This document shows, piece after piece, positions 11,915-51,953 of a stretch of DNA of 64,000 bases (positions are counted from its first letter, which is position 1; each line of letters begins with the position of its first letter). This stretch comes from Thermoproteota archaeon (GTDB lineage: Archaea; Thermoproteota; EX4484-205; JAAOZP01), in NCBI GenBank assembly GCA_038861395.1, contig JAWCDE010000001.1:73144-137143 (forward strand). Direction: 5' to 3'. A program made the position numbers and the translations under genes. The notes under the pieces were generated by a model that saw only the letters and a program-made list of their open reading frames with translations, was not told the origin of the DNA and did no database searches.

Positions 11915-12119
11915 CTGCCGACTTATATAGCTTTTTATATGGGTTTCAATACAATCTTCTTTACTAGTTTATTCACAAAAACAGAGGTATCGTTACCAAA
12001 TAAATAAGCATGGTTTTATTAGCATCAAATAAATCGTGCAGAGAGATGAAGCGTGTTGGAAAATCTAACAGGAGTCAAGTTAGAAAAACTTTAAATCGTG
12101 AGGATGTGAAAATTCCACA

Positions 12120-12211
12120 GCCCCAGTAGCTCAGCCTGGTTAGAGCGCCTCCTTGGTAATGCTGAAAAGCGCTGATGGAGGAGGTCGTGGGTTCGAAGCC
12201 CACCTGGGGCT
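12120..12211 (+). tRNA. tRNA-Thr (anticodon GGT) with a ~17-nt intron in the anticodon loop
   Basis: Hand-folded: acceptor GCCCCAG/CTGGGGC, D-arm GCTC-AGCCTGGTTA-GAGC, anticodon stem CCTCC/GGAGG, loop TTGGTAA, intron tgctgaaaagcgctgat, T-arm GTGGG-TTCGAAG-CCCAC, discriminator T. Confidence 0.75.
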
Positions 12212-12261
12212 TGGATTAAGACTTATAATGTGCCTTTGTGTTAGAAAATCGGTGGATCTCT

Positions 12262-13326: not shown

Positions 13327-13343
13327 ATTCCTTAGAGAAATCA

Positions 13344-13433
13344 AGCCTCGGGAGGGATTCGAACCCTCGACCTGCAGCTATCTCAGCCTCTTGCTTACGA
13401 GGCTGCCACTCTACCAGGCTGAGTTACCGAGGC
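13344..13433 (-). tRNA. tRNA-Thr (anticodon CGT) with a ~16-nt intron at or near 37/38
   Basis: Reverse complement folds as GCCTCGG-TA-ACTC-AGCCTGGTA-GAGT-G-GCAGC-CTCGTAA-[gcaagaggctgagata]-GCTGC-AGGTC-GAGGG-TTCGAAT-CCCTC-CCGAGGC-T. Confidence 0.72.
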
Positions 13434-13514
13434 TCATCCTAATATCTCTATGGAGAAGCTTAAAATTCTTTCCCTAGCCTTATTTATAGTTTAAAAGTTA
13501 TTTTTTTATTTGAG

Positions 13515-26208: not shown

Positions 26209-26299
26209 TGCGGCGCCCGGGATTTGAACCCGGGATTCCCAGCTTGGGGGGCTGGTTTTAGGGAAGCAAGCCTGTCCTACCAGGCTAGACCAGCGCCGC
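26209..26299 (-). tRNA. Probable tRNA-Gly (anticodon CCC) with a 17-nt non-canonical intron between the D-stem and the anticodon stem
   Basis: Reverse complement: GCGGCGC-TG-GTCT-AGCCTGGTA-GGAC-[aggcttgcttccctaaa]-A-CCAGC-CCCCCAA-GCTGG-GAATC-CCGGG-TTCAAAT-CCCGG-GCGCCGC-A. Arms are near-identical to the intronless tRNA-Gly(TCC) at 43127-43201. The anticodon loop is unusual (C33). Confidence 0.55.
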
Positions 26300-26607
26300 T
26301 TATCTAAGTTAATGTGTAAAATGGTGGATAAAAATTTTACAGCGAATTATGCTTCTTCTCCACTCTCCTATTTCTAGACTCAAAACAAGGCGAATAAAAG
26401 GTTTCCTCCGCGTTTTCACTATATTCAAAAGAGAATTCTTAAAGGGCTTGCGAGTAGGTACAACTGTTTTCCCCAGAAAGCTTAAAAACGCCCCTTTAAA
26501 ACCACTTTAATGTGGTGGAAAGCGATGAATTCTCTGGCCTTTGGGACCATGATTCCCGAGATCTTGAGTTATGAGCTTCCACCACTCTTCTACAGGAGGT
26601 TTGAATA

Positions 26608-43126: not shown

Positions 43127-43201
43127 TGCGGCGTCCGGGATTTGAACCCGGGATCCCCAGCTTGGAAGGCTGGTGTCCTAACCAGACTAGACGAACGCCG
43201 C
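43127..43201 (-). tRNA. tRNA-Gly (anticodon TCC), intronless
   Basis: Reverse complement: GCGGCGT-TC-GTCT-AGTCTGGTTA-GGAC-A-CCAGC-CTTCCAA-GCTGG-GGATC-CCGGG-TTCAAAT-CCCGG-ACGCCGC-A. Confidence 0.8.
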
Positions 43202-43307: not shown

Positions 43308-43913
43308 ATGAGGAAAATCATAGTTGTTACTGGCACACCTGGAACCGGCAAAACATCTCTGTGCAGCTATGTAGTGAGAAAGAATAGAGGATGGGTGCAT
43401 CTTGACTTGGGAGAGTTTGCAATAGATTCGAATGCTGTAGTTGGCTACGACAGTATTATGAAAACTAGAATTGTGGATACAAACGTTCTGAAGAAGGCTT
43501 TACGAAAATATATTTTAAGCAAGCTTGAAGAGGATTTAAACCTCCTAATAGACGGCCATTATGCTGCGGAGGTTTCTCCAGCTGACTACGTGGACTGTTG
43601 TATCGTATTGAGATGCAGACCCGATGTTCTTTGGCATAGACTCAGGAAAATTAGAGGATACAATGAGGAAAAAGCGAGGGAGAATCTTGAATCAGAGCTT
43701 ACGGATTATTGCTACCTAAATGCTAAAAAATACTTGAAAAAAGTAAGGATCATACAGTTAGACACTACTAGGAAAAGCATTAAAAAACTCTATTACAGGT
43801 TTATGAAATGCTATAAGAATGACTTTAAATGTAAGAGTGATGAAGTGGATTGGATTAGCTATTTCTCTAAGCATTCCGAGAAGCTGAATCTCCTTTTTCG
43901 TTTGAATCGATAG
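43308..43913 (+). CDS. fap7: Fap7/adenylate-kinase-6-like NTPase with C-terminal extension
   Basis: P-loop VTGTPGTGKTS, the DGH motif, and LRCRPDVLWHRLRKIRGYNEEKARENLESEL, which matches the archaeal Fap7 lid region. The C-terminal 60 aa are AT-rich and overlap the convergent HerA-like gene by 47 nt. Confidence 0.6.
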   Translation: MRKIIVVTGTPGTGKTSLCSYVVRKNRGWVHLDLGEFAIDSNAVVGYDSIMKTRIVDTNVLKKALRKYILSKLEEDLNLLIDGHYAAEVSPADYVDCCIVLRCRPDVLWHRLRKIRGYNEEKARENLESELTDYCYLNAKKYLKKVRIIQLDTTRKSIKKLYYRFMKCYKNDFKCKSDEVDWISYFSKHSEKLNLLFRLNR

Positions 43914-45663
43914 ATAAAAGGATTGGTTTAGAAATGCCTTCAGCCGTTAAAAAGCCGTATCCCGGGGGAAGCCTCTTAAGAAGGTCATAATCTTCCTGAG
44001 GTAAACCCATTATATCCATTAGGATTCTCGACTCCTCCCCCTCGCATATTCTATGAGAGATTTTCAAACCGGTGGACTTTATTATTTCTGGAGAAATCTG
44101 TGACGGAAATTGTGATATAAGTATTAAACTTTCATTAAACTTCCTCATCTCTAAAAATAATTTTTCAGCTATAGTCGGTGGTGAATCACGCCTCCTGTAA
44201 GGAAGTATATTATGCGCTTCTTCTAATACGATGAAGTGGCGTTTTGCATTCCTATTCTTTAATCTAAATTCGTAAAGTAATGCTAAAATGAAAAGTGAAG
44301 TCAGTTTACGCATATCCACTTCTATGATATCTCCGAGCTCGAAAACAGTAATTCCTTCTAATATATCTTTGATGCTTATTAGCTTATCCCTATTGCAGAA
44401 AATTTCTCTGTTCTGTCCTGTTACTAGAGGCCTTAATCTTCTTAACAATGCAAACTTCGTCTCATTTTCATAGAATGATTTAATACTCCATTTCTCTAAT
44501 GTATCTATAAAGGAAACCAAAGGATCATGTGCTTTAATACCGAGCATGTTCTCTGTTAACGTTTGTAAAAGCACCTCTCTAAACATATATGATTGTGACG
44601 GCGTAAAATTATATATTTGATCAAAAATATCTGTAACTATTGCAACATGCTCAGATACATTGTTAGATTCAATAGGGTTAATTATATCTAGAGTGAAAGA
44701 CCCTAATCCTAAAATTCTTCCATTAAGCTCTTCTGCAAGATGACGGTATTCATTATGCCAGTCTAGAATCATTAAAGAATATCCCAATCTTGCTAATTCT
44801 CTTACTATATGTTTGGCGGTAGTTGTCTTTCCCGATCCTGTTGAACCATATATGGCGACATGCTTCTCAAACATATTGATCTTTAATTTTAACGGAGCAA
44901 TTTTAGAACCACTGAAAATAACCGATCCTAAATCTATTGTTTCTTTTTCCCCCTCATGTTCAATATAAGAATTTGAAGGAAGCAGGGAAGTATAGCCAGG
45001 TATATGCGGTGCGAGCGAATTTGCTAAATCTCTTGCTTTAGACTTTCCTAAGAAAGGTTTATCTATTAAAATACTGTTCAAATACTTAATAAGTTTCTCC
45101 CCCTTCAATCTGACTATTTTCAGTTCTGGAAAAGCAGTATTGTAAATAGATCTAATTTTTTCAATATCTGTTTCAAGCATTTTTATAGCTTCGTTAATGC
45201 CCTCTCGACCTATTTTTCTACTAACTATTAAAAGCTGCGTCAAATGAGCAGAGTCCTCAGAAGCCTCAATGGGAGAAATATGCGTTACGCATGTGAGTGA
45301 AACTCCGGACTTTAAAATACCGCTTATGAAACTCTGAACCTTCCGATAGTAATCGTCGGCTTTAATACTGCTTAATTCAGAGCTTTCTTCAGGAGATATT
45401 GAAACCCCTCCTATTATTAATTCAGAGGAGTCTGTTTTCACAATAAAGTATTTTTCGTCATTAATTGGTAGTATACTTTTAATAGATTTGGAGCGTTTTA
45501 ATAAAAACGCTATTATGATGGTTATTAGGGAGAATACTATAGGCAAAACAGCTGGAAAATAATTGTTGAAAGAAAAAGGCAAAGCGGTTATAATATGTTT
45601 AAACATCAATATGAGTAACACTATCAGAAATATGAAGTATATTGGATCTATTTTTTGATCCAT
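43867..45663 (-). CDS. Membrane-anchored HerA/VirB4-type (DUF87) ATPase, CedB/TrbE-like
   Basis: Two N-terminal TM helices, then a HerA-FtsK-superfamily core: Walker A AIYGSTGSGKTT followed by ILDWHNEY, and Walker B FIVLEEAHNIL. 598 aa. Last gene of the island operon. Confidence 0.7.
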   Translation of the reverse strand: MDQKIDPIYFIFLIVLLILMFKHIITALPFSFNNYFPAVLPIVFSLITIIIAFLLKRSKSIKSILPINDEKYFIVKTDSSELIIGGVSISPEESSELSSIKADDYYRKVQSFISGILKSGVSLTCVTHISPIEASEDSAHLTQLLIVSRKIGREGINEAIKMLETDIEKIRSIYNTAFPELKIVRLKGEKLIKYLNSILIDKPFLGKSKARDLANSLAPHIPGYTSLLPSNSYIEHEGEKETIDLGSVIFSGSKIAPLKLKINMFEKHVAIYGSTGSGKTTTAKHIVRELARLGYSLMILDWHNEYRHLAEELNGRILGLGSFTLDIINPIESNNVSEHVAIVTDIFDQIYNFTPSQSYMFREVLLQTLTENMLGIKAHDPLVSFIDTLEKWSIKSFYENETKFALLRRLRPLVTGQNREIFCNRDKLISIKDILEGITVFELGDIIEVDMRKLTSLFILALLYEFRLKNRNAKRHFIVLEEAHNILPYRRRDSPPTIAEKLFLEMRKFNESLILISQFPSQISPEIIKSTGLKISHRICEGEESRILMDIMGLPQEDYDLLKRLPPGYGFLTAEGISKPILLSIDSNEKGDSASRNA

Positions 45664-45667
45664 TATT

Positions 45668-45856
45668 TTAAGGAAGGAGCCATCCGAATAGGCTATAGCC
45701 TAAGTCGCTTACACCCTTTATTAGAGAGTTGAAGAAATTAGCTATGTTATCCACGATTTGTTTTGAAACCCCAAAGACTGCTCCAAGCATTACTAGTGCG
45801 AGTACAACAAGCAATCCCTCTTCTATTAATTGCGATCCCTTAATTCTCGTTTTCAA
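45668..45856 (-). CDS. Pilin-like small protein with a class III (prepilin-type) signal peptide candidate
   Basis: MKTRIKG|SQLIEEGLLVVLALVMLGAVFG: a basic leader, G at -1, then a hydrophobic helix. 62 aa. Sits between the TadC-like and HerA-like genes. Confidence 0.4.
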   Translation of the reverse strand: MKTRIKGSQLIEEGLLVVLALVMLGAVFGVSKQIVDNIANFFNSLIKGVSDLGYSLFGWLLP

Positions 45857-45920
45857 ATCTACATCACCTCATTTACAGAAGGAGATGAACAAAATATAAG
45901 CTCCAATGGAATTGAGACAT

Positions 45921-46694
45921 TCAAAATAGGAATGCTGTAAGTACTCTGTTAAATATTAGAAAAGAGAGTGCAAAACTAGTTATAGAGTATAATAATGTTT
46001 TCAAAAGCCTCTTATAAGAGAGAGAATAATGTACTAATATCGAAATGCTCAGTAAATACGTAAATAATGAAAATGTTTGCGATGCTTCTAATTGAAGAAT
46101 CGGCTTCGATGAAAGGGAAGAGAACATATTGATTACTGGTCCCGCTGCTGAAAGAAATCCCATTAAAAGAGCACTAACGATTAGCATTATTCTGGCTCTA
46201 AACCTTGCTTCTGAAAAAATGTTTCTCCTCTCATTTTTCAGTATCTCGTTTTCTTTCAGAATGATGATATATGTTTCTAAAACTTTTTTGGCAGAAGATG
46301 CATCCCTAACAAATAGGCTTGAAACGAGTCTCATCAATATTTTAATAGTTTTATCTGAAGATTTGGAATACTTTACTAAAGCTTTTCCTATTGGAAAACC
46401 GTTTATGTTGTCGTGAATAGCCTTTTCGAAAATCTTACGACAATTCGTTTCCTCGTTAATATCCGGAAATGATTTAAAAACTAAATTTTCCAAGTTTCCA
46501 GGATATTCGGATATCTTCTCTACTGCTCTCAAATCCAGTGCTTTTGGAGAATCCACATCATCTCCATTTTTGGTCAATATTAATGTATATACTAGAAGTT
46601 GTAATGAACTTATAGCTGGAATCTCGAGTTTTAAGATAAATGCTAAAATAAGAATTCCTGCTTCAATTAATATATAATAATAAATATTCCTCAA
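45921..46694 (-). CDS. TadC/FlaJ-like type IV pilus platform membrane protein (T2SS-F-like repeat), second half
   Basis: 257 aa: N-terminal TM pair, a soluble helical domain of about 130 aa, then C-terminal TMs. Confidence 0.45.
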   Translation of the reverse strand: MRNIYYYILIEAGILILAFILKLEIPAISSLQLLVYTLILTKNGDDVDSPKALDLRAVEKISEYPGNLENLVFKSFPDINEETNCRKIFEKAIHDNINGFPIGKALVKYSKSSDKTIKILMRLVSSLFVRDASSAKKVLETYIIILKENEILKNERRNIFSEARFRARIMLIVSALLMGFLSAAGPVINMFSSLSSKPILQLEASQTFSLFTYLLSISILVHYSLSYKRLLKTLLYSITSFALSFLIFNRVLTAFLF

Positions 46695-47272
46695 CCTAGT
46701 AATACACTCTTGATCTTTCTAATCTTATTAAAAAATATTCTAAATATCAGGGTATTGGAAATGAAAAAGATTGGCAGTAGTATATAGGAAGTCTGTGGCA
46801 GAAATTCTGAGATCAGTATAATTGGAGTTGGAACAAGGAAGATATAGAAGAAGAAAATAGAAACCAAAGAGTTAAGCTTTAAAGTATATTCTTGGTATTT
46901 CCTTCTTGCCTTTGATTCAAAAATCCTAAAGAGCACTAGAACTTCTTCTGAACTTATCTTCTTCGCATCGATGGAGAATGCTTGATCAATAATAGTTAAT
47001 AGTTCTGGCTCATTTTGTAAAGAATTTTTTATCATTTTTTGCATATCCTTTCCGTTTAAGTTCTTCTTAAGACATTTTCTTAATAAGCTGTAGATATTAC
47101 CGTATTCCTTTTTTGAAACGCTATAAAGTGTCTTATATAGATCATTATAAATTGTTTTAGCAGTAATGATATCCATTGCCAATGGAGTCACTATCTCATA
47201 ATGACTCTCTTCTTTTTTCCTTAATGGTGTTAAAATGTAAAGAAATGTTAAAAGATTCTTAATACTCTTCAT
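46691..47272 (-). CDS. TadB/FlaJ-like platform membrane protein, first half
   Basis: 193 aa with a cytoplasmic helical domain and C-terminal TMs. 4-nt overlap with the downstream half. Confidence 0.4.
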   Translation of the reverse strand: MKSIKNLLTFLYILTPLRKKEESHYEIVTPLAMDIITAKTIYNDLYKTLYSVSKKEYGNIYSLLRKCLKKNLNGKDMQKMIKNSLQNEPELLTIIDQAFSIDAKKISSEEVLVLFRIFESKARRKYQEYTLKLNSLVSIFFFYIFLVPTPIILISEFLPQTSYILLPIFFISNTLIFRIFFNKIRKIKSVLLG

Positions 47273-47277
47273 AGCTT

Positions 47278-49140
47278 CTATTTCCTCCCTAAAGTCTTCG
47301 AATAGGTTTCAAGAACAAGGCCCCTGATAACGGAGTTTTCTGAAAAACCGTGATTAATAATTATTCTTTTAATATCCTCATATATTTCTTGAAGAACATT
47401 TTCTTCAATACAGTTTAAACGTGCTAATTTTCTAAATATCTTTGAAGCGTTTAAATCATCATAATATGGAGAATTTTTCAAAAAATTATTATTAGCGTAA
47501 ACTTTCTTCAAACCAGAGTTCTCATCAACTATCTTTATCTCGCTTATAAACCGTTTAACCGTATTTCTCCATTCTAATCTCTTCATATTTATTATTAAGT
47601 CTAGCTCTGGTATGAGTAATTCTGGGATGCCGTATACTTTTACAAGCCTCTTAATAAACCCATTGCTATCGGAAGCGTGTGCAGTATGCATTATCCTGAG
47701 TCCAGCGGAAACTGCTCGAAACATTGCTTTTACATGCCCCCTGGTTTGGATCTCTCCAAGAATTAGATAAGAAGGGGTTCTGTGAAGTACCTTAATTATT
47801 TCGAGAGTTTTAGTATCCTTAGCCTCCCTGCTTTCCAATGGCTCGACAATGTATACTATCCTGTGTTGATCAGAAACTCTTGGAGGAAGCGTTTCAAGAG
47901 CGTCTTCTATATGCACTATGCGCCACCAAGGGGGCATGAAGTAGCTTAAAAAGTTTAAGAGAGAAGTTTTTCCAGAATTTGGTTCTCCAACTATAGATAT
48001 GTTGGCCCTGTTAAGCGTGGCAAAGATTAAGAAGGCAGCAGATTCTGGAGAAAAATAATGCGTCTCCAGAAGGTACTTGAGAGGAAGAACATTACTCATA
48101 TGCTTTCGTACATCTATAACTCCTTTACCCCAGGTTAGGGGAGGAATATCTACCGAAATTCTTATAGGTATTTTATCAAAAAATATGGAAGTCTTAATTG
48201 AAGGATTAGCATAATCCAGATTAAGGTTAGACTCTCTTTTGATCAGGGTTATGAAGCTTTCAAAATCCTTCTCTTGAAATTTGAGGTTTGTATCTAGTCT
48301 TCCAAAAACGGCGTGGTCTACATATAACTTTTCACCAACATTGTCTAAGAAGAAGTTTTGCACGTTATCATCGATTATTAAAGGAAAGATCTTGGATAAT
48401 CCAATCGAAGAATATAGAGCATGTTTAACAAGAGACTTCTTTACGGATTTCTCGATTTCTCTTAAAGTCAGAATGTTTAAGAATCTTAAACCAGTTTTAA
48501 GCCTATGTCTGTAAATTTGATCTAGTCTTCCACTCCTAAGCATTTCTTCAGAATAAGCATAACGTAAGAGTATCGAAAGCTCTTTATTAATCCAGAAATA
48601 ATCATCTGATAAGAAGGAAACTCTGTAAAGACTATTTCTTTCGTCTATTGAGTAGAGTAAGTGGCCTATTACGTATCTATGATCGTCTGAAAACTTCTTG
48701 TTAAAAACATTTTCCCTATCTTTAATACCGCATTTGGTCAATAACTCGCCGGGTATATTAAGTTCCAGCATCTGGTTTAAGTATTTTAAGTATAAGGTAC
48801 CGTAAGACGGAGTAATGCAGAGCTCTTTCTGAATGTCATCTAGGTTAGTGTAGTTATCACAATTTTTTTCAGCAAGAGCTCTATAACGCTTGTTTTTCTC
48901 TTCCATAACTCTTTGAGAGCATTTCTTTAGAAAATCTAAGCAATCTTTATTGACCTCGTACCATTCATCGTCAAGATAAACTATAATTCTTCTCGGGGAA
49001 AGATGTGTAAGCTTATGTATAATGCTGCAGAAAAGGGAAGAGTCGATTTTCTGAGCGGATAGGTAGAGAATTCTACTCCTAGCATTCCATGACCATGTTC
49101 TTCGTGCAAAAAATACGAGGCTTTCTCTAGTCTCGCTCAT
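47278..49140 (-). CDS. Type II/IV secretion system ATPase (FlaI/TadA/VirB11-GspE family) with a long N-terminal extension
   Basis: C-terminal domain with Walker A IVGEPNSGKTSLLN, the Asp box and LILGEIQTRG (GEIR-type motif), and the His box HTAHASDS. About 330 aa of N-terminal sequence of unknown family. 620 aa. Confidence 0.75.
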   Translation of the reverse strand: MSETRESLVFFARRTWSWNARSRILYLSAQKIDSSLFCSIIHKLTHLSPRRIIVYLDDEWYEVNKDCLDFLKKCSQRVMEEKNKRYRALAEKNCDNYTNLDDIQKELCITPSYGTLYLKYLNQMLELNIPGELLTKCGIKDRENVFNKKFSDDHRYVIGHLLYSIDERNSLYRVSFLSDDYFWINKELSILLRYAYSEEMLRSGRLDQIYRHRLKTGLRFLNILTLREIEKSVKKSLVKHALYSSIGLSKIFPLIIDDNVQNFFLDNVGEKLYVDHAVFGRLDTNLKFQEKDFESFITLIKRESNLNLDYANPSIKTSIFFDKIPIRISVDIPPLTWGKGVIDVRKHMSNVLPLKYLLETHYFSPESAAFLIFATLNRANISIVGEPNSGKTSLLNFLSYFMPPWWRIVHIEDALETLPPRVSDQHRIVYIVEPLESREAKDTKTLEIIKVLHRTPSYLILGEIQTRGHVKAMFRAVSAGLRIMHTAHASDSNGFIKRLVKVYGIPELLIPELDLIINMKRLEWRNTVKRFISEIKIVDENSGLKKVYANNNFLKNSPYYDDLNASKIFRKLARLNCIEENVLQEIYEDIKRIIINHGFSENSVIRGLVLETYSKTLGRK

Positions 49141-49283
49141 CTGTAGACAACCTTTAGGAAATTGCTTAGCTCACGATACTTTTTCTCCAAGCTTAAAACC
49201 CTGTTGTTGAGCTTGCTTAGACTAATCTTCAAATCCTCTATTTCTTGAATTATTGCATTAATTAATAGATCGTCTTTGGACAT
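49137..49283 (-). CDS. 48-aa coiled-coil micro-ORF translationally coupled (ATGA overlap) to the secretion ATPase
   Basis: Translated by hand: MSKDDLLINAIIQEIEDLKISLSKLNNRVLSLEKKYRELSNFLKVVYR*. Its TGA stop overlaps the ATG of the downstream ATPase gene. Not in the ORF track because it is under 60 aa. Confidence 0.35.
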   Translation of the reverse strand: MSKDDLLINAIIQEIEDLKISLSKLNNRVLSLEKKYRELSNFLKVVYR

Positions 49284-49371
49284 CACTTCTATTCTAAACT
49301 TTTAAAAAGAATATTTATCTGCCAATATTGACACTCATTGGAGGTTATAAGCATTCTTACAGAGATTTCTG

Positions 49372-49554
49372 TTGAATAATGAAAGAAAATTTCAAACTGG
49401 GAGGTTTAGAGAGATGAGTAATCTGTTAGAGAAAAGTCTGATAGTGCTTTTTTCAACAATAATCTTTGGAATTAGTATTGCTTACTTGCTTGATCAAGTA
49501 GTTCCTATGCTCAAGCAAATATACGATGTCGTAGTTAAACTGATTACTGGCTAA
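49372..49554 (+). CDS. Small membrane protein (pilin-like candidate)
   Basis: 60 aa with one hydrophobic helix (LIVLFSTIIFGISIAYLL) after a basic leader. First of four co-oriented small genes. Confidence 0.3.
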   Translation: MNNERKFQTGRFREMSNLLEKSLIVLFSTIIFGISIAYLLDQVVPMLKQIYDVVVKLITG

Positions 49555-49559
49555 CTCGG

Positions 49560-49955
49560 GTGAGATCATTGAGCGAAATACTTGAAGAACATTTGAAAGA
49601 TGCTTCATGGCTTTTTACATCACTTCTAATAGGAATTGTTATTTTTAATACTGCTTGTGTTCTGAAAACGGATTTCTTGAAAAATATCTTTGAAAGCATA
49701 TTTTTAGTAATAAAACAATACGCCGTCCTTTCGGAGGAGCATGGATGTACTTTCACTCTGTTAATGCCAAGTCCTCCCTTAATTAATTATTCCATTATGC
49801 TTGACGGCAACAAGTATTACATTATTATTCATGGGATCTGTGTTTTCGAGGGGGAAGAGGAATATTATTACTTTAATAGAGTCATTTTAGAACCTGGAGG
49901 CAAATATTTTGTAAAAGCATCAGGTAGGGAGGTTGTATTTACTAGGCATGAGTGA
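49560..49955 (+). CDS. Small protein with N-terminal TM helix (pilin-like candidate)
   Basis: 131 aa. GTG start. The hydrophobic segment WLFTSLLIGIVIF lies near the N-terminus. Confidence 0.3.
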   Translation: MRSLSEILEEHLKDASWLFTSLLIGIVIFNTACVLKTDFLKNIFESIFLVIKQYAVLSEEHGCTFTLLMPSPPLINYSIMLDGNKYYIIIHGICVFEGEEEYYYFNRVILEPGGKYFVKASGREVVFTRHE

Positions 49956-50072
49956 TAAGCTACTCGAATCACTATTCTCCTCAATCGTAGTCTTGCTGAT
50001 AATAATCGAACTTGGTTTGGCTCTTTTGCTTACCTTACATAATATATCTATTATGATGGGCTTCATTAAAAG

Positions 50073-50468
50073 GTGGTGAAAAATACTATGGATTCTTGGG
50101 AAAGTATGTTAGCAATAATCTTAAGCTTCTTTCTAGTTATACCCGTGGTTGCTGCTTCCCAATATTTGAGGTTGAAATTCAAATCATTATCCGATATCGA
50201 TGAGGATTTGAGAATAGAGGTTAATGCACTTACGATACTTGACCAAGAACATGAGATCAAAAATATGCTCGAGAAATTGATTAAATTTCTAAATTCTGAT
50301 GAAGTAGAATGGGTGAGTATAGAGCTTTCCAGCGAGAAGCATGGGAGGATTACAATAAGGAATGAAAGAGTTTCAATAGAGTCTTGGAAGCAGGTCAAAT
50401 ATGTCAAAGTCTTAAAGATCATGGGCGAAGATGTATTGTATCTTACGATAGGGATTAGAAATGATTAA
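50073..50468 (+). CDS. Small protein with N-terminal signal/TM (pilin-like candidate)
   Basis: 131 aa. MLAIILSFFLVIPVVAAS then a soluble domain. Confidence 0.35.
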   Translation: MVKNTMDSWESMLAIILSFFLVIPVVAASQYLRLKFKSLSDIDEDLRIEVNALTILDQEHEIKNMLEKLIKFLNSDEVEWVSIELSSEKHGRITIRNERVSIESWKQVKYVKVLKIMGEDVLYLTIGIRND

Positions 50469-50964
50469 AACCTGGCTTATTGTAGTGTTTGTTTCAATTC
50501 TCATAATGATTGTTCTACTTGCAGTAAACCTCATGCTCTTAGTAAATGTTGAGCTTTCAGTAAATTTCTTAAAACAAAAAAGGAAAGCGATAATCGCTGA
50601 TTCCTGTATAGATGATTTCTTTAAAAGTATTAGCACAATTCTGGATGATAGCATAAGTAGTTCGAGAGGGAATTTTTCAATTATGAGGGAAACCTTAGAA
50701 AAGAGGATTGAAAAATTAATGGAAAAAGTTTCAAAAACCAAAGGATTTTTAGAAGAATGCGGATTAAAAATCTGCTTTGAAAACTCTATTGTTTTCCTCA
50801 ATAATACTGAAGAATACGTTATCCAAATAGCTGTTAAGGCTTATGCAGAAGACTGCGAAGGATTTTTCTCAATTAGGCGTAGTAGCAATATAGTACGTTT
50901 CCTTCGTCAAGAAATCTGTGAAGAATCGAATATTGCTGAACTTTTTCCAAACAATTCCTCATAA
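50461..50964 (+). CDS. Small protein with N-terminal TM helix (pilin-like candidate)
   Basis: 167 aa. WLIVVFVSILIMIVLLAVNLMLLV. 8-nt overlap with the preceding gene. Confidence 0.35.
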   Translation: MIKTWLIVVFVSILIMIVLLAVNLMLLVNVELSVNFLKQKRKAIIADSCIDDFFKSISTILDDSISSSRGNFSIMRETLEKRIEKLMEKVSKTKGFLEECGLKICFENSIVFLNNTEEYVIQIAVKAYAEDCEGFFSIRRSSNIVRFLRQEICEESNIAELFPNNSS

Positions 50965-51836
50965 GTTTCTCTAACACTGTATTCTGCATATCCTATGTAC
51001 TCTGCTAATTCCCTTTGAGTAACGGGGTTTTTGATGTTTAAGATTGATGCTGCTTCTTTAGATGCTGCGTAAATTATAGAAGCTATGCATATCATCGGGT
51101 TCTTGCTTCTAAAAAAATAATGTTTGGCTCTTAAATCTTTGAGAATTCTTAATGAGATTGTTTTAAGATTATTGATAAAATTGACTTTGTCTTCAGGTTT
51201 AAGCTTTTCCAGACGGCTATTATTCCTCATGATCATAGAGGTGATTTCAATAATTGTCTTATCAGCATCGTTTTTCGTTTCCATAAGGCCTATCTCTCTT
51301 GCTGCAGACATTACTTGAAGAATATCCCTGGTTTTAACTTTAAGACCGATGCTTTGCAAATATATCCTTATCTTCTTGTAATGAGGAGCTATGCTTAAGC
51401 CATGGAACCTTGCTGCAACAACTACAGAATACGTTGCAATAGCTGCTCTATTAGGTCTTTCACGATTTTGTCTGAATACATGAAGCAGGCTTAAACCAAT
51501 CCGATGCGATTCCAGTCTTATTGAGGGACCTAAATGGAATGTATCACACAATTTATCTATTAACCATTTTAATTCGCTTTCGCTTTTATTAGAGGGGGAT
51601 ATGCTCTTTTGGAGGCTGGAGATTTTTCTAAGAGAGTTTTTCTCTATAATAATGCTCCCGTAATGAGGTTCTTTTTGAATAATGTGATTCGGACTTGGAT
51701 GGGCCACATATCTGTTCGAAGCACTAACAACTAGACCGCATCTGCTGCAAACAAGCTCATTATCCGAACTTATAATGGGGGAGTTACAGTTAGGGCATTT
51801 CGTAAAGTCTTGGACTACTTCTTGGCGCATCTTCAA
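50907..51836 (-). CDS. tfb: Transcription factor B (TFIIB) paralog, divergent
   Basis: N-terminal TFIIB zinc ribbon (CPNCNS...CSRCG) followed by two cyclin-like repeats (RPNRAAIATYSVVVAARFHG... and ...NPMICIASIIYAASKEAASILNIKNPVTQRELAEYIGYAEYSVRETYEEL). 309 aa. AT-rich. Confidence 0.72.
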   Translation of the reverse strand: MKMRQEVVQDFTKCPNCNSPIISSDNELVCSRCGLVVSASNRYVAHPSPNHIIQKEPHYGSIIIEKNSLRKISSLQKSISPSNKSESELKWLIDKLCDTFHLGPSIRLESHRIGLSLLHVFRQNRERPNRAAIATYSVVVAARFHGLSIAPHYKKIRIYLQSIGLKVKTRDILQVMSAAREIGLMETKNDADKTIIEITSMIMRNNSRLEKLKPEDKVNFINNLKTISLRILKDLRAKHYFFRSKNPMICIASIIYAASKEAASILNIKNPVTQRELAEYIGYAEYSVRETYEELFGKSSAIFDSSQIS

Positions 51837-51953
51837 AGTAACATAGTCTGTTAATCGATAAAAGCTACTATGAAATAGAGTTATGCTCTAAAGTAAATAA
51901 CATGCTTCAGAAAGTATTAAAAATAGGGAGTGGAGTGTAAAAATGGGTTAAAA

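Follow-up and report, generated by a model that had tools for sequence, protein, structure and literature searches.

A type IV pilus-like gene module with a CedD-like ATPase and its own TFB paralog in a Thermoproteota archaeon

Gene content of the module

We analysed a 64,000-nucleotide (nt) stretch of contig JAWCDE010000001.1 (assembly GCA_038861395.1, positions 73,144 to 137,143; hereafter the window) from a Thermoproteota archaeon, in which positions 43914-51836 hold a compact set of genes, here called the module, for a type IV pilus (T4P)-like assembly machine, a membrane-anchored ATPase resembling the DNA-import protein CedD, and a paralog of the transcription factor TFB. The module comprises 12 genes, of which six form a tight minus-strand series, five lie divergently on the plus strand (49372-50964) and one, the TFB paralog, follows on the minus strand. 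A first reading of the same DNA from its letters and open reading frames (ORFs), the original prediction, had proposed this gene content and minus-strand operon, and our ORF map agrees with it, except that five conserved plus-strand ORFs were found where four small divergent genes had been counted. The genes and promoter elements, with the evidence for each, are as follows (aa, amino acids; TM, transmembrane; SD, Shine-Dalgarno).

43867-45663, minus strand: CedD-like membrane-anchored HerA/VirB4-superfamily ATPase, 598 aa (DUF87, CedD model, AlphaFold2/Foldseek)
45668-45856, minus strand: pilin-like protein, 62 aa, candidate major/core (pseudo)pilin (class III-type leader motif)
45894-45907, minus strand: promoter element ATTGGAGCTTATAT (ATTGG-N3-TATA) upstream of the pilin/CedD-like pair, followed by an SD-like GAGGTG and a TTG start
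45921-46694, minus strand: TadC/T2SSF-like platform protein, 257 aa (T2SSF in orthologues, topology)
46691-47272, minus strand: tentative TadB-like second platform protein, 193 aa (topology, marginal T2SSF)
47278-49140, minus strand: secretion/pilus-assembly ATPase of the T2SSE/VirB11/FlaI family, 620 aa (T2SSE, FlaI model, PDB profile matches)
49137-49286, minus strand: cytoplasmic coiled-coil protein, 48/49 aa, first gene of the ATPase operon (conservation across loci)
49312-49351, both strands: bidirectional promoter core of two back-to-back ATTGG-N3-TATA units (invariant block)
49414-49554, plus strand: helical membrane protein, 46 aa, N-terminus MSNLLEKSL (orthologues start at the same Met)
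49560-49955, plus strand: candidate minor pilin, 131 aa, ...SEILEEHLKD, TM helix, beta-rich C-domain (alignment)
49948-50079 (ORF also listed from 49933), plus strand: membrane protein, 43 aa, N-terminus MSDKLLES (orthologues)
50073-50468, plus strand: candidate minor pilin, 131 aa, (M)DSWES.../MQFLEG..., TM helix, mixed alpha/beta C-domain (alignment, topology)
50461-50964, plus strand: N-terminally anchored protein (MIKTWLI...), 167 aa, last of the divergent operon (overlaps the TFB gene by 58 nt)
50907-51836, minus strand: full-length TFB/TFIIB paralog, 309 aa (Zn ribbon, linker, two cyclin folds)

The 598-aa protein consists of two N-terminal TM helices, an alpha/beta N-domain and an ATPase domain (Walker A GSTGSGKT, Walker B VLEEAH), parts that are also seen in its AlphaFold2 (AF2) model (predicted local distance difference test, pLDDT, 77), and it matches Pfam DUF87 at 7e-22. 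Amongst NCBIfam models, CedD (NF053655) was matched over its full length (5-526/527) with 211 bits (2.7e-62), which falls below the equivalog cut-off of 600 bits, HerA with 59 bits and VirB4 with 39 bits, and the CedB model gave no reported match. CedD was likewise the best model for all 14 members of the family, the CedB model matching two of the 14, weakly. An exhaustive HMMER search reached bona fide CedD (the Acidianus ambivalens / A. hospitalis cluster, 659 bits against the CedD model), to which the window protein is 31% identical over residues 243-585, the ATPase domain, and the top Foldseek matches of the AF2 model were Sulfolobus solfataricus HerA (4D2I, 4e-18) and a VirB4 ATPase domain (4AG5, TM-score 0.72). 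By these comparisons the protein is a predicted CedD homologue outside the curated family, and the gene has no paralog elsewhere in the window. The membrane ATPase that the original prediction had likened to CedB keeps its membrane anchor and its place in the HerA/VirB4 superfamily, but its best curated match is CedD, not CedB. Studies from 2025 found that DNA import in Sulfolobus acidocaldarius and S. islandicus cannot proceed without CedD, and import is the only experimentally known role of the family (PMC11823120, PMC11868833).

The CedD-like gene is translationally coupled to the gene of the 62-aa pilin. In the window 4 nt separate the pilin stop from the CedD-like start. Of 14 loci of the Brockarchaeota lineage (see below), 12 have a gap between -1 and +4 nt and the other two, by our start calls, one of 20 nt; in distant lineages, gene tables place the pair in overlap or at most 23 nt apart.

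The 620-aa ATPase matches Pfam T2SSE (6e-12; precomputed PF27713) and the NCBIfam FlaI model (1.6e-29), and PDB profile searches gave FlaI (4II7, 7e-25), Archaeoglobus fulgidus GspE2 (2OAP) and CpaF (8RKD). Its Walker A, Walker B and His-box motifs are readable in the sequence, and an N-terminal region of ~230 residues, conserved in orthologues, lies outside the match to solved ATPases. An archaellum was rejected, as the FlaI model reached only 103 bits against a cut-off of 550 and the Pfam and NCBIfam scans gave no archaellin or Fla accessory matches. The 48/49-aa gene overlaps the ATPase start by 4 nt and is 61-98% conserved across loci, a small ORF being present at this position in distant lineages too. 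Downstream, the 257-aa protein has the topology of one TM helix, a cytoplasmic helical domain and two or three further TM helices, and the 193-aa protein that of a half-platform, with a cytoplasmic helical domain and two C-terminal TM helices. The window copies of both gave no Pfam match; three of the 13 orthologues of the 257-aa protein do match Pfam T2SSF (3e-6 at best), and the distant contig L019 adds a weak precomputed match. PDB profile searches with the 62-, 193- and 257-aa families returned nothing significant. The T2SSF-like proteins are the sole polytopic proteins of the module, which holds no CedA, the VirB6-like channel with 6-7 TM helices.

The 62-aa protein reads MKTRIKG/SQLIEEGLLVVLALVML (MKTRIKG/SQLIEEGLL..., the slash marking the predicted cleavage site), with a basic leader, G or A at -1, a hydrophobic helix and Glu at +5/+6, and the motif [KR][GA]/[SA][QP]L[IV]EE is kept in all of its orthologues, including those of distant lineages. 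It is the most conserved protein of the module, with 77-92% identity within the lineage and 58-69% in distant lineages (copies at L019 7798-7980, L022 7036-7227 and L024 8780-8980), where the ATPases are 35-39% and the housekeeping Lsm 45-54% identical. Such conservation, odd in a pilin exposed at the surface, suggests that it is buried in a pseudopilus or conduit, or that it contacts a partner which is itself invariant. Pfam Flp_Fap gave no match even at E<=10, and the pilin profile found no PDB chain at E<=10, the CedA1 and TedC pilus entries included.

All five plus-strand proteins carry an N-terminal hydrophobic helix. Four of them begin directly with a pilin-like x-x-L-L-E (MSNLLEK, MSDKLLE, MNEILEEHL and MQFLEG), each followed by a TM helix, and may be leaderless pilin-like subunits. 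The first of these genes is listed as a 60-aa ORF from 49372, which is probably too long, an SD-like GGAGGT lying upstream of the start at 49414, and tiny ORFs are called at the position of the 43-aa gene in L019, L021 and L024.

Conservation and chromosomal context

As the original prediction had judged (mid-30s against mid-40s % guanine plus cytosine, GC), the module is AT-rich, with a GC of 34.3% (0.343) against 43.5% (0.435) in the remainder of the window; 1-kb windows agree, running at 0.29-0.37 from 43.5 to 52 kb and at 0.40-0.47 in the flanks on both sides. The drop is present at every codon position, GC at third positions being 0.27-0.46 in module genes against 0.33-0.60 in neighbouring genes, with 0.27-0.35 in the seven module genes longer than 150 aa and up to 0.46 in short ORFs. 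Convergent overlaps close both module ends, 47 nt between the CedD-like gene and a kinase gene (43867-43913) and 58 nt between the 167-aa gene and the TFB gene (50907-50964); the CedD-like and kinase genes also overlap or closely abut in the distant contigs L020 and L021 and in a Desulfurococcales metagenome-assembled genome (MAG). The module had been described as an island beside a tRNA-Gly. A tRNA-Gly(TCC) does lie nearby, at 43127-43201, but the two are not directly adjacent, as the core adenylate-kinase-like gene (43308-43913) stands between them.

A scan of one genome per species found 15 relatives, which carry the labels Ca. Brockarchaeota, Thermoproteota or Nitrososphaerota. In 13 of these 15 genomes the module is complete, with gene order and orientation unchanged, and is bounded by one set of core genes, L40e-betaCASP-PAC2-Lsm to one side and the kinase to the other; the remaining two contigs (L010 and L016) are short, end within the module and hold part of it only. 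Identity to the window declines in step with that of the flanking genes, and in a distant clade module genes are 28-65% and flanking genes 60-93% identical; the module genes evolve faster than their flanks. The other side of the locus, Rpr2/MarC/LeuA with the tRNA-Gly, is next to the module in the nearest clade alone and is rearranged in most relatives whilst the module stays; the closeness to the tRNA is incidental. A direct-repeat search of 42.9-52.5 kb gave short chance repeats only and no tRNA-derived attachment (att) site, and none of the ten module proteins scanned against Pfam and NCBIfam matches an integrase, relaxase or replication family. The GC dip, 6-9 points deep in the low-GC clade, shrinks to 1-4 points in the clade with a GC of 0.46, which fits fast-evolving genes drifting with mutational bias, unlike a recent import. 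The module is best read as chromosomal and vertically inherited in the Brockarchaeota lineage (Thermoproteota). The original prediction had set against itself the case of ordinary pilus genes conserved in synteny across the lineage with no HerA-like partner; the synteny is indeed conserved, yet the HerA-like partner is conserved with it.

The same architecture occurs in five more distant archaeal metagenome contigs (L019-L022 and L024). Gene by gene, they run from a TFB-like gene through 3-5 mainly small divergent ORFs, several of which show a hydrophobic N-terminal segment on inspection, a gene for a small protein (coiled-coil-like in those inspected), a T2SSE ATPase and two membrane proteins to a 60-82-aa pilin, a DUF87 ATPase and a convergent AAA_18 kinase; the flanks are often Lsm/PAC2/betaCASP to one side and thermosome and S17e genes to the other. 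The CedD-like proteins of the distant contigs, one of which is labelled Thermoprotei, are 29-37% identical, and the two module ATPases co-diverge in distant lineages (33-39% and 30-37% identity); the module is probably older than the Brockarchaeota lineage. Two of these sister modules have an extra 193-aa multi-TM gene between the small-protein and ATPase operons (L019 3768-4349 and L024 4767-5348, both on the minus strand), absent from the window module, whose only Pfam match is a sub-threshold Peptidase_A24 (E 0.017-0.03); it may encode a dedicated prepilin peptidase.

Two further observations concern the records themselves. The public taxon labels of the orthologues conflict (Brockarchaeota, Thermoproteota, Nitrososphaerota, Thaumarchaeota, Bathyarchaeota and Jordarchaeales), probably owing to inconsistent or mis-binned MAG taxonomy, and at L016 6993-8808, on a MAG contig labelled Bathyarchaeota, the pilus ATPase aligns over 397/620 residues before a gap, either a disrupted gene or an assembly error.

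The chromosomal position of the module recurs in other lineages. The block PAC2-(TGT)-Lsm-Rpo8 ... kinase-thermosome-S17e is deeply conserved across Thermoproteota, with cedD homologues in its gap. Lineages with the module have PAC2-Lsm-[TFB...CedD-like module]-kinase-thermosome-S17e; in the window the thermosome side has been rearranged away and the kinase and Lsm/PAC2 sides are retained. Acidianus hospitalis (L025, CP002535.1 732631-754250) has S17e-Urm1-x-CedD-thermosome-(170-aa Zn-ribbon TFB) ... Rpo8-Lsm-TGT-PAC2, in which we infer the 170-aa protein to be tfb3; cedD is immediately preceded there by Urm1 and a 121-aa unknown protein. The Desulfurococcales MAG (L026) has PAC2-TGT-Lsm-Rpo8-CedD-kinase-thermosome-S17e, with cedD alone, and a further locus, L023, holds a truncated DUF87 gene in the corresponding slot; Rpo8 is in the slot in L023, L025 and L026. 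Locus tags reveal the same triplet of tfb3, thermosome beta and cedD in S. acidocaldarius (saci_0665, PMC5817253; saci_0666, PMC4569737; saci_0667, PMC11823120) and in S. islandicus (SiRe_1717, PMC7515695; SiRe_1716, PMC10465181; SiRe_1715, PMC11868833). Together with the Acidianus and Desulfurococcales gene orders, this implies that the slot between Lsm/Rpo8 and kinase/thermosome holds, depending on the lineage, the full module, tfb3 and cedD, or cedD alone. A Thermoproteales operon of the T4P clade 4D, with an ATPase, a membrane protein, TFIIB and RPB8 but no pilins (PMC4858521), could be a further derivative of the module.

The TFB paralog and a promoter element at the module genes

The TFB paralog that the original prediction had assigned to the module is a full-length TFB with a Zn ribbon and cyclin folds. 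The window copy matches the TFIIB Zn ribbon (1.6e-6), amongst 12 orthologues Zn_Ribbon_TF was found in 11 and the TFIIB cyclin repeat in eight, and PDB profile matches were to TFIIB at residues 10-155 and 242-299 and to archaeal TFBc (1AIS) at 215-301. On the two MAG contigs with this locus the recorded gene call is 214 aa. Upstream of that call lies the coding sequence of a CPxC...CxxC zinc ribbon, which every Brockarchaeota-lineage orthologue keeps, as do two of three distant orthologues that were inspected. The 309-aa reading from the TTG start at 51836 is therefore the right one and the 214-aa call is too short.

In the Brockarchaeota-lineage loci, three promoters of the module share the element ATTGG-N3-TATA, in which ATTGG lies directly upstream of the TATA box, at the position of the TFB recognition element (BRE). 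Between the divergent operons, ATTGGCAGATAAATA on the minus strand (49312-49326) faces the ATPase operon and ATTGGAGGTTATAAG on the plus strand (49337-49351) faces the small-protein operon, the two back-to-back units together forming the palindrome CCAAT-N10-ATTGG. Across 15 sequences this intergenic region varies except for one block, CTTATAA-CCNCCAAY-N8-10-YATTGGNGR-ATAAATA, which is invariant. Exact matches to ATTGGNGNWTAWAW number two in the 64-kb window against 0.16 expected, the third window site having one mismatch, and 37 in 17 loci of 9-22 kb each (two being copies of the window's own locus), all but one of them at the three module promoters. Outside the module, the window holds chance-level matches only. 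The TFB gene has a promoter of its own (51837-51929), which is different and lacks the ATTGG element. Most simply, the module's full-length TFB may recognise ATTGG as a private BRE.

A one-mismatch match at chance level, AATGGTGGATAAAAA, lies at 26320-26334 beside a second tRNA-Gly(TCC) (26209-26299, 91 nt), which is probably intron-bearing and shares its anticodon with the 75-nt copy at 43127-43201. Elsewhere in the window, ARAGORN called two tRNA-like genes of 92-94 nt with odd anticodon loops (12119-12212 and 13343-13434), probably intron-containing archaeal tRNAs.

A candidate machine for DNA uptake or exchange

The reading we favour, with a probability of roughly 0.55, is that the module encodes a TFB-controlled machine in which a pilus and a CedD-type DNA translocase serve DNA uptake or exchange. 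It would join three parts: a T4P-like assembly machine (a FlaI/CpaF-family ATPase with its coiled-coil partner, a split TadB/TadC-like platform pair, a leader-bearing pilin and five small membrane proteins), a CedD-type membrane-anchored translocase of the hexameric type, and a full-length TFB paralog. A signal would act on the TFB gene's own, ordinary promoter to switch that gene on, its product would recruit RNA polymerase to the three module promoters with ATTGG-N3-TATA, a pilus or pseudopilus of the 62-aa pilin would contact DNA or a partner cell, and the CedD-like ATPase, held by its two TM helices beside the platform, would pump DNA across the membrane. The role in DNA movement, the physical complex of pilus and CedD-like ATPase and the specificity of the TFB for its BRE are what we infer; the gene content and families, the synteny, the coupling, the promoter element and the shared slot are observed. 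In evolutionary terms the module would be the complete form, of which Sulfolobales keep tfb3 and cedD, the Desulfurococcales MAG cedD only and clade 4D maybe an ATPase, a membrane protein, TFIIB and Rpo8. A more far-reaching version, which we put forward tentatively and consider rather doubtful, holds that the module is an ancestral, complete DNA-uptake/exchange apparatus in which T4P and CedD are one machine and the TFB reads its private BRE like an alternative sigma factor, that the Sulfolobales, Desulfurococcales and Thermoproteales arrangements are its decayed remnants, and that CedD was originally a T4P partner, not that of a system resembling type IV secretion.

Several results weigh against a DNA-moving machine of this kind, or against the assignments on which it is built. 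None of the Sulfolobales CedD partners CedA, CedA1, CedA2 and CedB was found, the channel and pilins being sought in the module and CedB as a paralog of the CedD-like gene in the window. CedD-like genes keep the slot in the Desulfurococcales MAG and in L023 with no pilus genes beside them, so the adjacency of pilus and CedD-like genes could partly be inherited synteny. For the 62-aa pilin there is no Pfam or PDB match and the call is made at the level of the motif, and the small proteins were assigned as minor pilins from N-terminal motifs and topology, with no hidden Markov model or PDB matches; a single-sequence AF2 model of the 131-aa protein at 49560-49955 shows a long N-terminal helix and five strands at low confidence (pLDDT 47) and was not used for fold searches. 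The second platform protein matched T2SSF in 2 of 13 orthologues, at E=0.084 only, and hhalign of the 193-aa against the 257-aa family gave a probability of 12%, which leaves paralogy of the platform pair unsupported. No Peptidase_A24 match, and so no prepilin peptidase candidate, was found among the ten module ORFs scanned, the other two being of 43-46 aa. On the regulatory side, L020 and L021 show no recognisable ATTGG element, and a separate dimeric regulator could bind the palindrome, with ATTGG as its operator. In a profile comparison with the 170-aa Acidianus TFB3 only the Zn ribbon aligns, and with TFB3 truncated and the module TFB full-length, their orthology is positional only.

The points just listed bear on what else the locus may be. 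It might be an ordinary adhesion or surface T4P locus with its own regulator, in which the CedD-like gene moves no DNA and is either an old syntenic neighbour or an extra pilus motor for extrusion or retraction; to our knowledge, archaea lack PilT. CedD-like genes in the slot with no pilus genes, the lack of Ced channel or Ced pilin homologues in the module and the frequency of TFIIB homologues near archaeal T4P loci (PMC4858521) would all sit well with this. We nevertheless judge it unlikely, as the stop/start coupling of the pilin and CedD-like genes and their shared promoter are conserved though the ATPases are only 33-39% identical, DNA import is the sole experimental role of the CedD family (PMC11823120, PMC11868833), and the 62-aa pilin is far more conserved than an exposed adhesive pilin would be expected to be. 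That same hyper-conservation, as expected of a buried pseudopilus, would suit a membrane machine of pilus ancestry that has ceased to build pili, whether a secretion/pseudopilus device or a transcription-linked system like that of clade 4D, which has TFIIB and RPB8 (PMC4858521), Rpo8 also lying in the slot in three of the related loci. Most of the small proteins lack a cleavable leader and the window's module has no prepilin peptidase, but the 62-aa protein has a canonical class III-type leader with Glu at +5, the sister modules carry the gene with the sub-threshold Peptidase_A24 match, and the full pilin-like gene set here is unlike clade 4D; taken together, these make such a machine distinctly improbable.

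Two readings outside the pilus field fared much worse. The original prediction had called the module compositionally foreign, an accessory region and perhaps the backbone of an integrated mobile or conjugative element next to the tRNA-Gly, for which its low GC, the nearby tRNA and ATPases of the VirB4/VirB11 superfamilies could be cited; we rejected it, and hold it to be highly improbable, on the module's unchanged order and position in 13 of 15 genomes, its divergence in step with that of the flanks, the separation from the tRNA-side genes in most genomes, the fading of the GC dip in higher-GC relatives, the lack of any att repeat and, in the ten module proteins scanned, the lack of integrase, relaxase and replication families. 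A HerA-type defence system against phage is scarcely credible either. PADLOC HerA and mad8 models match the ATPase domain with at most 78 bits, and SIR2-HerA and DUF4297-HerA complexes are among the PDB neighbours, yet these generic HerA matches, on which the defence reading was dropped, score far below the 211 bits of CedD, no SIR2, DUF4297 or nuclease partner is present, no other module protein matches PADLOC, and the protein is membrane-anchored within a pilus operon.

Returning to the DNA-exchange machine, its parts are known ones (archaeal T4P, CedD, and TFIIB homologues near T4P loci, the last noted earlier, PMC4858521), and their combination is apparently undescribed. In agreement with the original prediction, which could match the locus to no described one, we found no publication that describes the fusion of a T4P operon with a CedD-type ATPase, its cross-lineage conservation, the slot shared with tfb3/cedD or the ATTGG element. 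CedD itself (Saci_0667 / SiRe_1715) shares with the 598-aa protein the N-terminal TM helices, the N-domain, the HerA/VirB4-like ATPase and the slot by thermosome, Lsm and Rpo8 with a TFB paralog near; the gene here, however, lies inside a T4P operon and is coupled to a pilin, whereas Sulfolobales cedD stands alone and its product works with the type IV secretion system (T4SS)-like CedA, CedA1, CedA2 and CedB, and the Thermoproteales homologue TedD belongs to a T4SS-like Ted locus (PMC11823120). The parallel drawn in the original prediction to Ups, Ced and TFB3 holds, with the HerA-like ATPase best matching the CedD model: as in Sulfolobales, a TFB paralog would govern both a DNA translocase and a T4P operon of small protein, ATPase, platform and pilins, and in both cases the TFB paralog and cedD homologue are chromosomally linked. 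Ups genes, however, have been reported from Sulfolobales alone, where they are distant from cedD and tfb3. TFB3 is a truncated protein that keeps the Zn ribbon, lacks the B-finger, has an abbreviated core domain and acts as a co-activator, whilst the paralog here is full-length with both cyclin folds. The promoters differ too, with ATTGG-N3-TATA here and a published ultraviolet-response motif of A(N)TTTC (PMC5817253).

Likenesses to other pilus systems are partial. With the bacterial Tad/Flp system (CpaF/TadA, TadB, TadC, Flp) the module shares a putative two-gene platform, an ATPase that matches CpaF structures and a very short all-helical pilin (~55 aa mature) with G/xxxxE at the cleavage site (G/xxxxEY in Flp), but the ATPase is nearer to archaeal FlaI/GspE2 than to CpaF, the pilin matches no Flp model, outer-membrane parts are lacking and a CedD-like ATPase and a TFB are attached. 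The archaeal T4P loci with TFIIB surveyed by Makarova, Koonin & Albers in 2016 (PMC4858521; Thermoproteales clade 4D and Desulfurococcales clade 4A) similarly have a TACK-type T4P ATPase and a TFIIB homologue, with TadC encoded singly or as a pair and further small, untraceable components that were put forward as minor pilins; Rpo8 (RPB8) lies in the neighbourhood of related slots. The survey mentions no HerA/CedD-type ATPase in T4P loci, and clade 4D is without pilins. In design, the module is analogous to bacterial competence (Com pilus with ComEC/ComFA), where a T4P-type filament, a separate ATP-driven membrane translocase and a dedicated transcription factor come together, although the translocase and channel are not homologous and no ComEC-like channel is found here.

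Movement of DNA between archaeal cells is known in detail only for Sulfolobales, where Ups, Ced and TFB3 are scattered on the chromosome and their links were worked out by genetics. The pilus, importer and regulator functions proposed here would be written as one conserved module with a private promoter element, and low GC beside a tRNA, which is easily mistaken for the mark of a mobile island, is no such mark at this locus. The module also raises the hypothesis that CedD-type ATPases may dock on a T4P platform. If the favoured reading is true, the TFB and its element would be a naturally matched TFB/BRE pair, giving rare access to how archaeal TFB paralogs select promoters, and both the tfb3-thermosome-cedD linkage of Sulfolobales and the pilin-less clade 4D systems would gain an evolutionary explanation.

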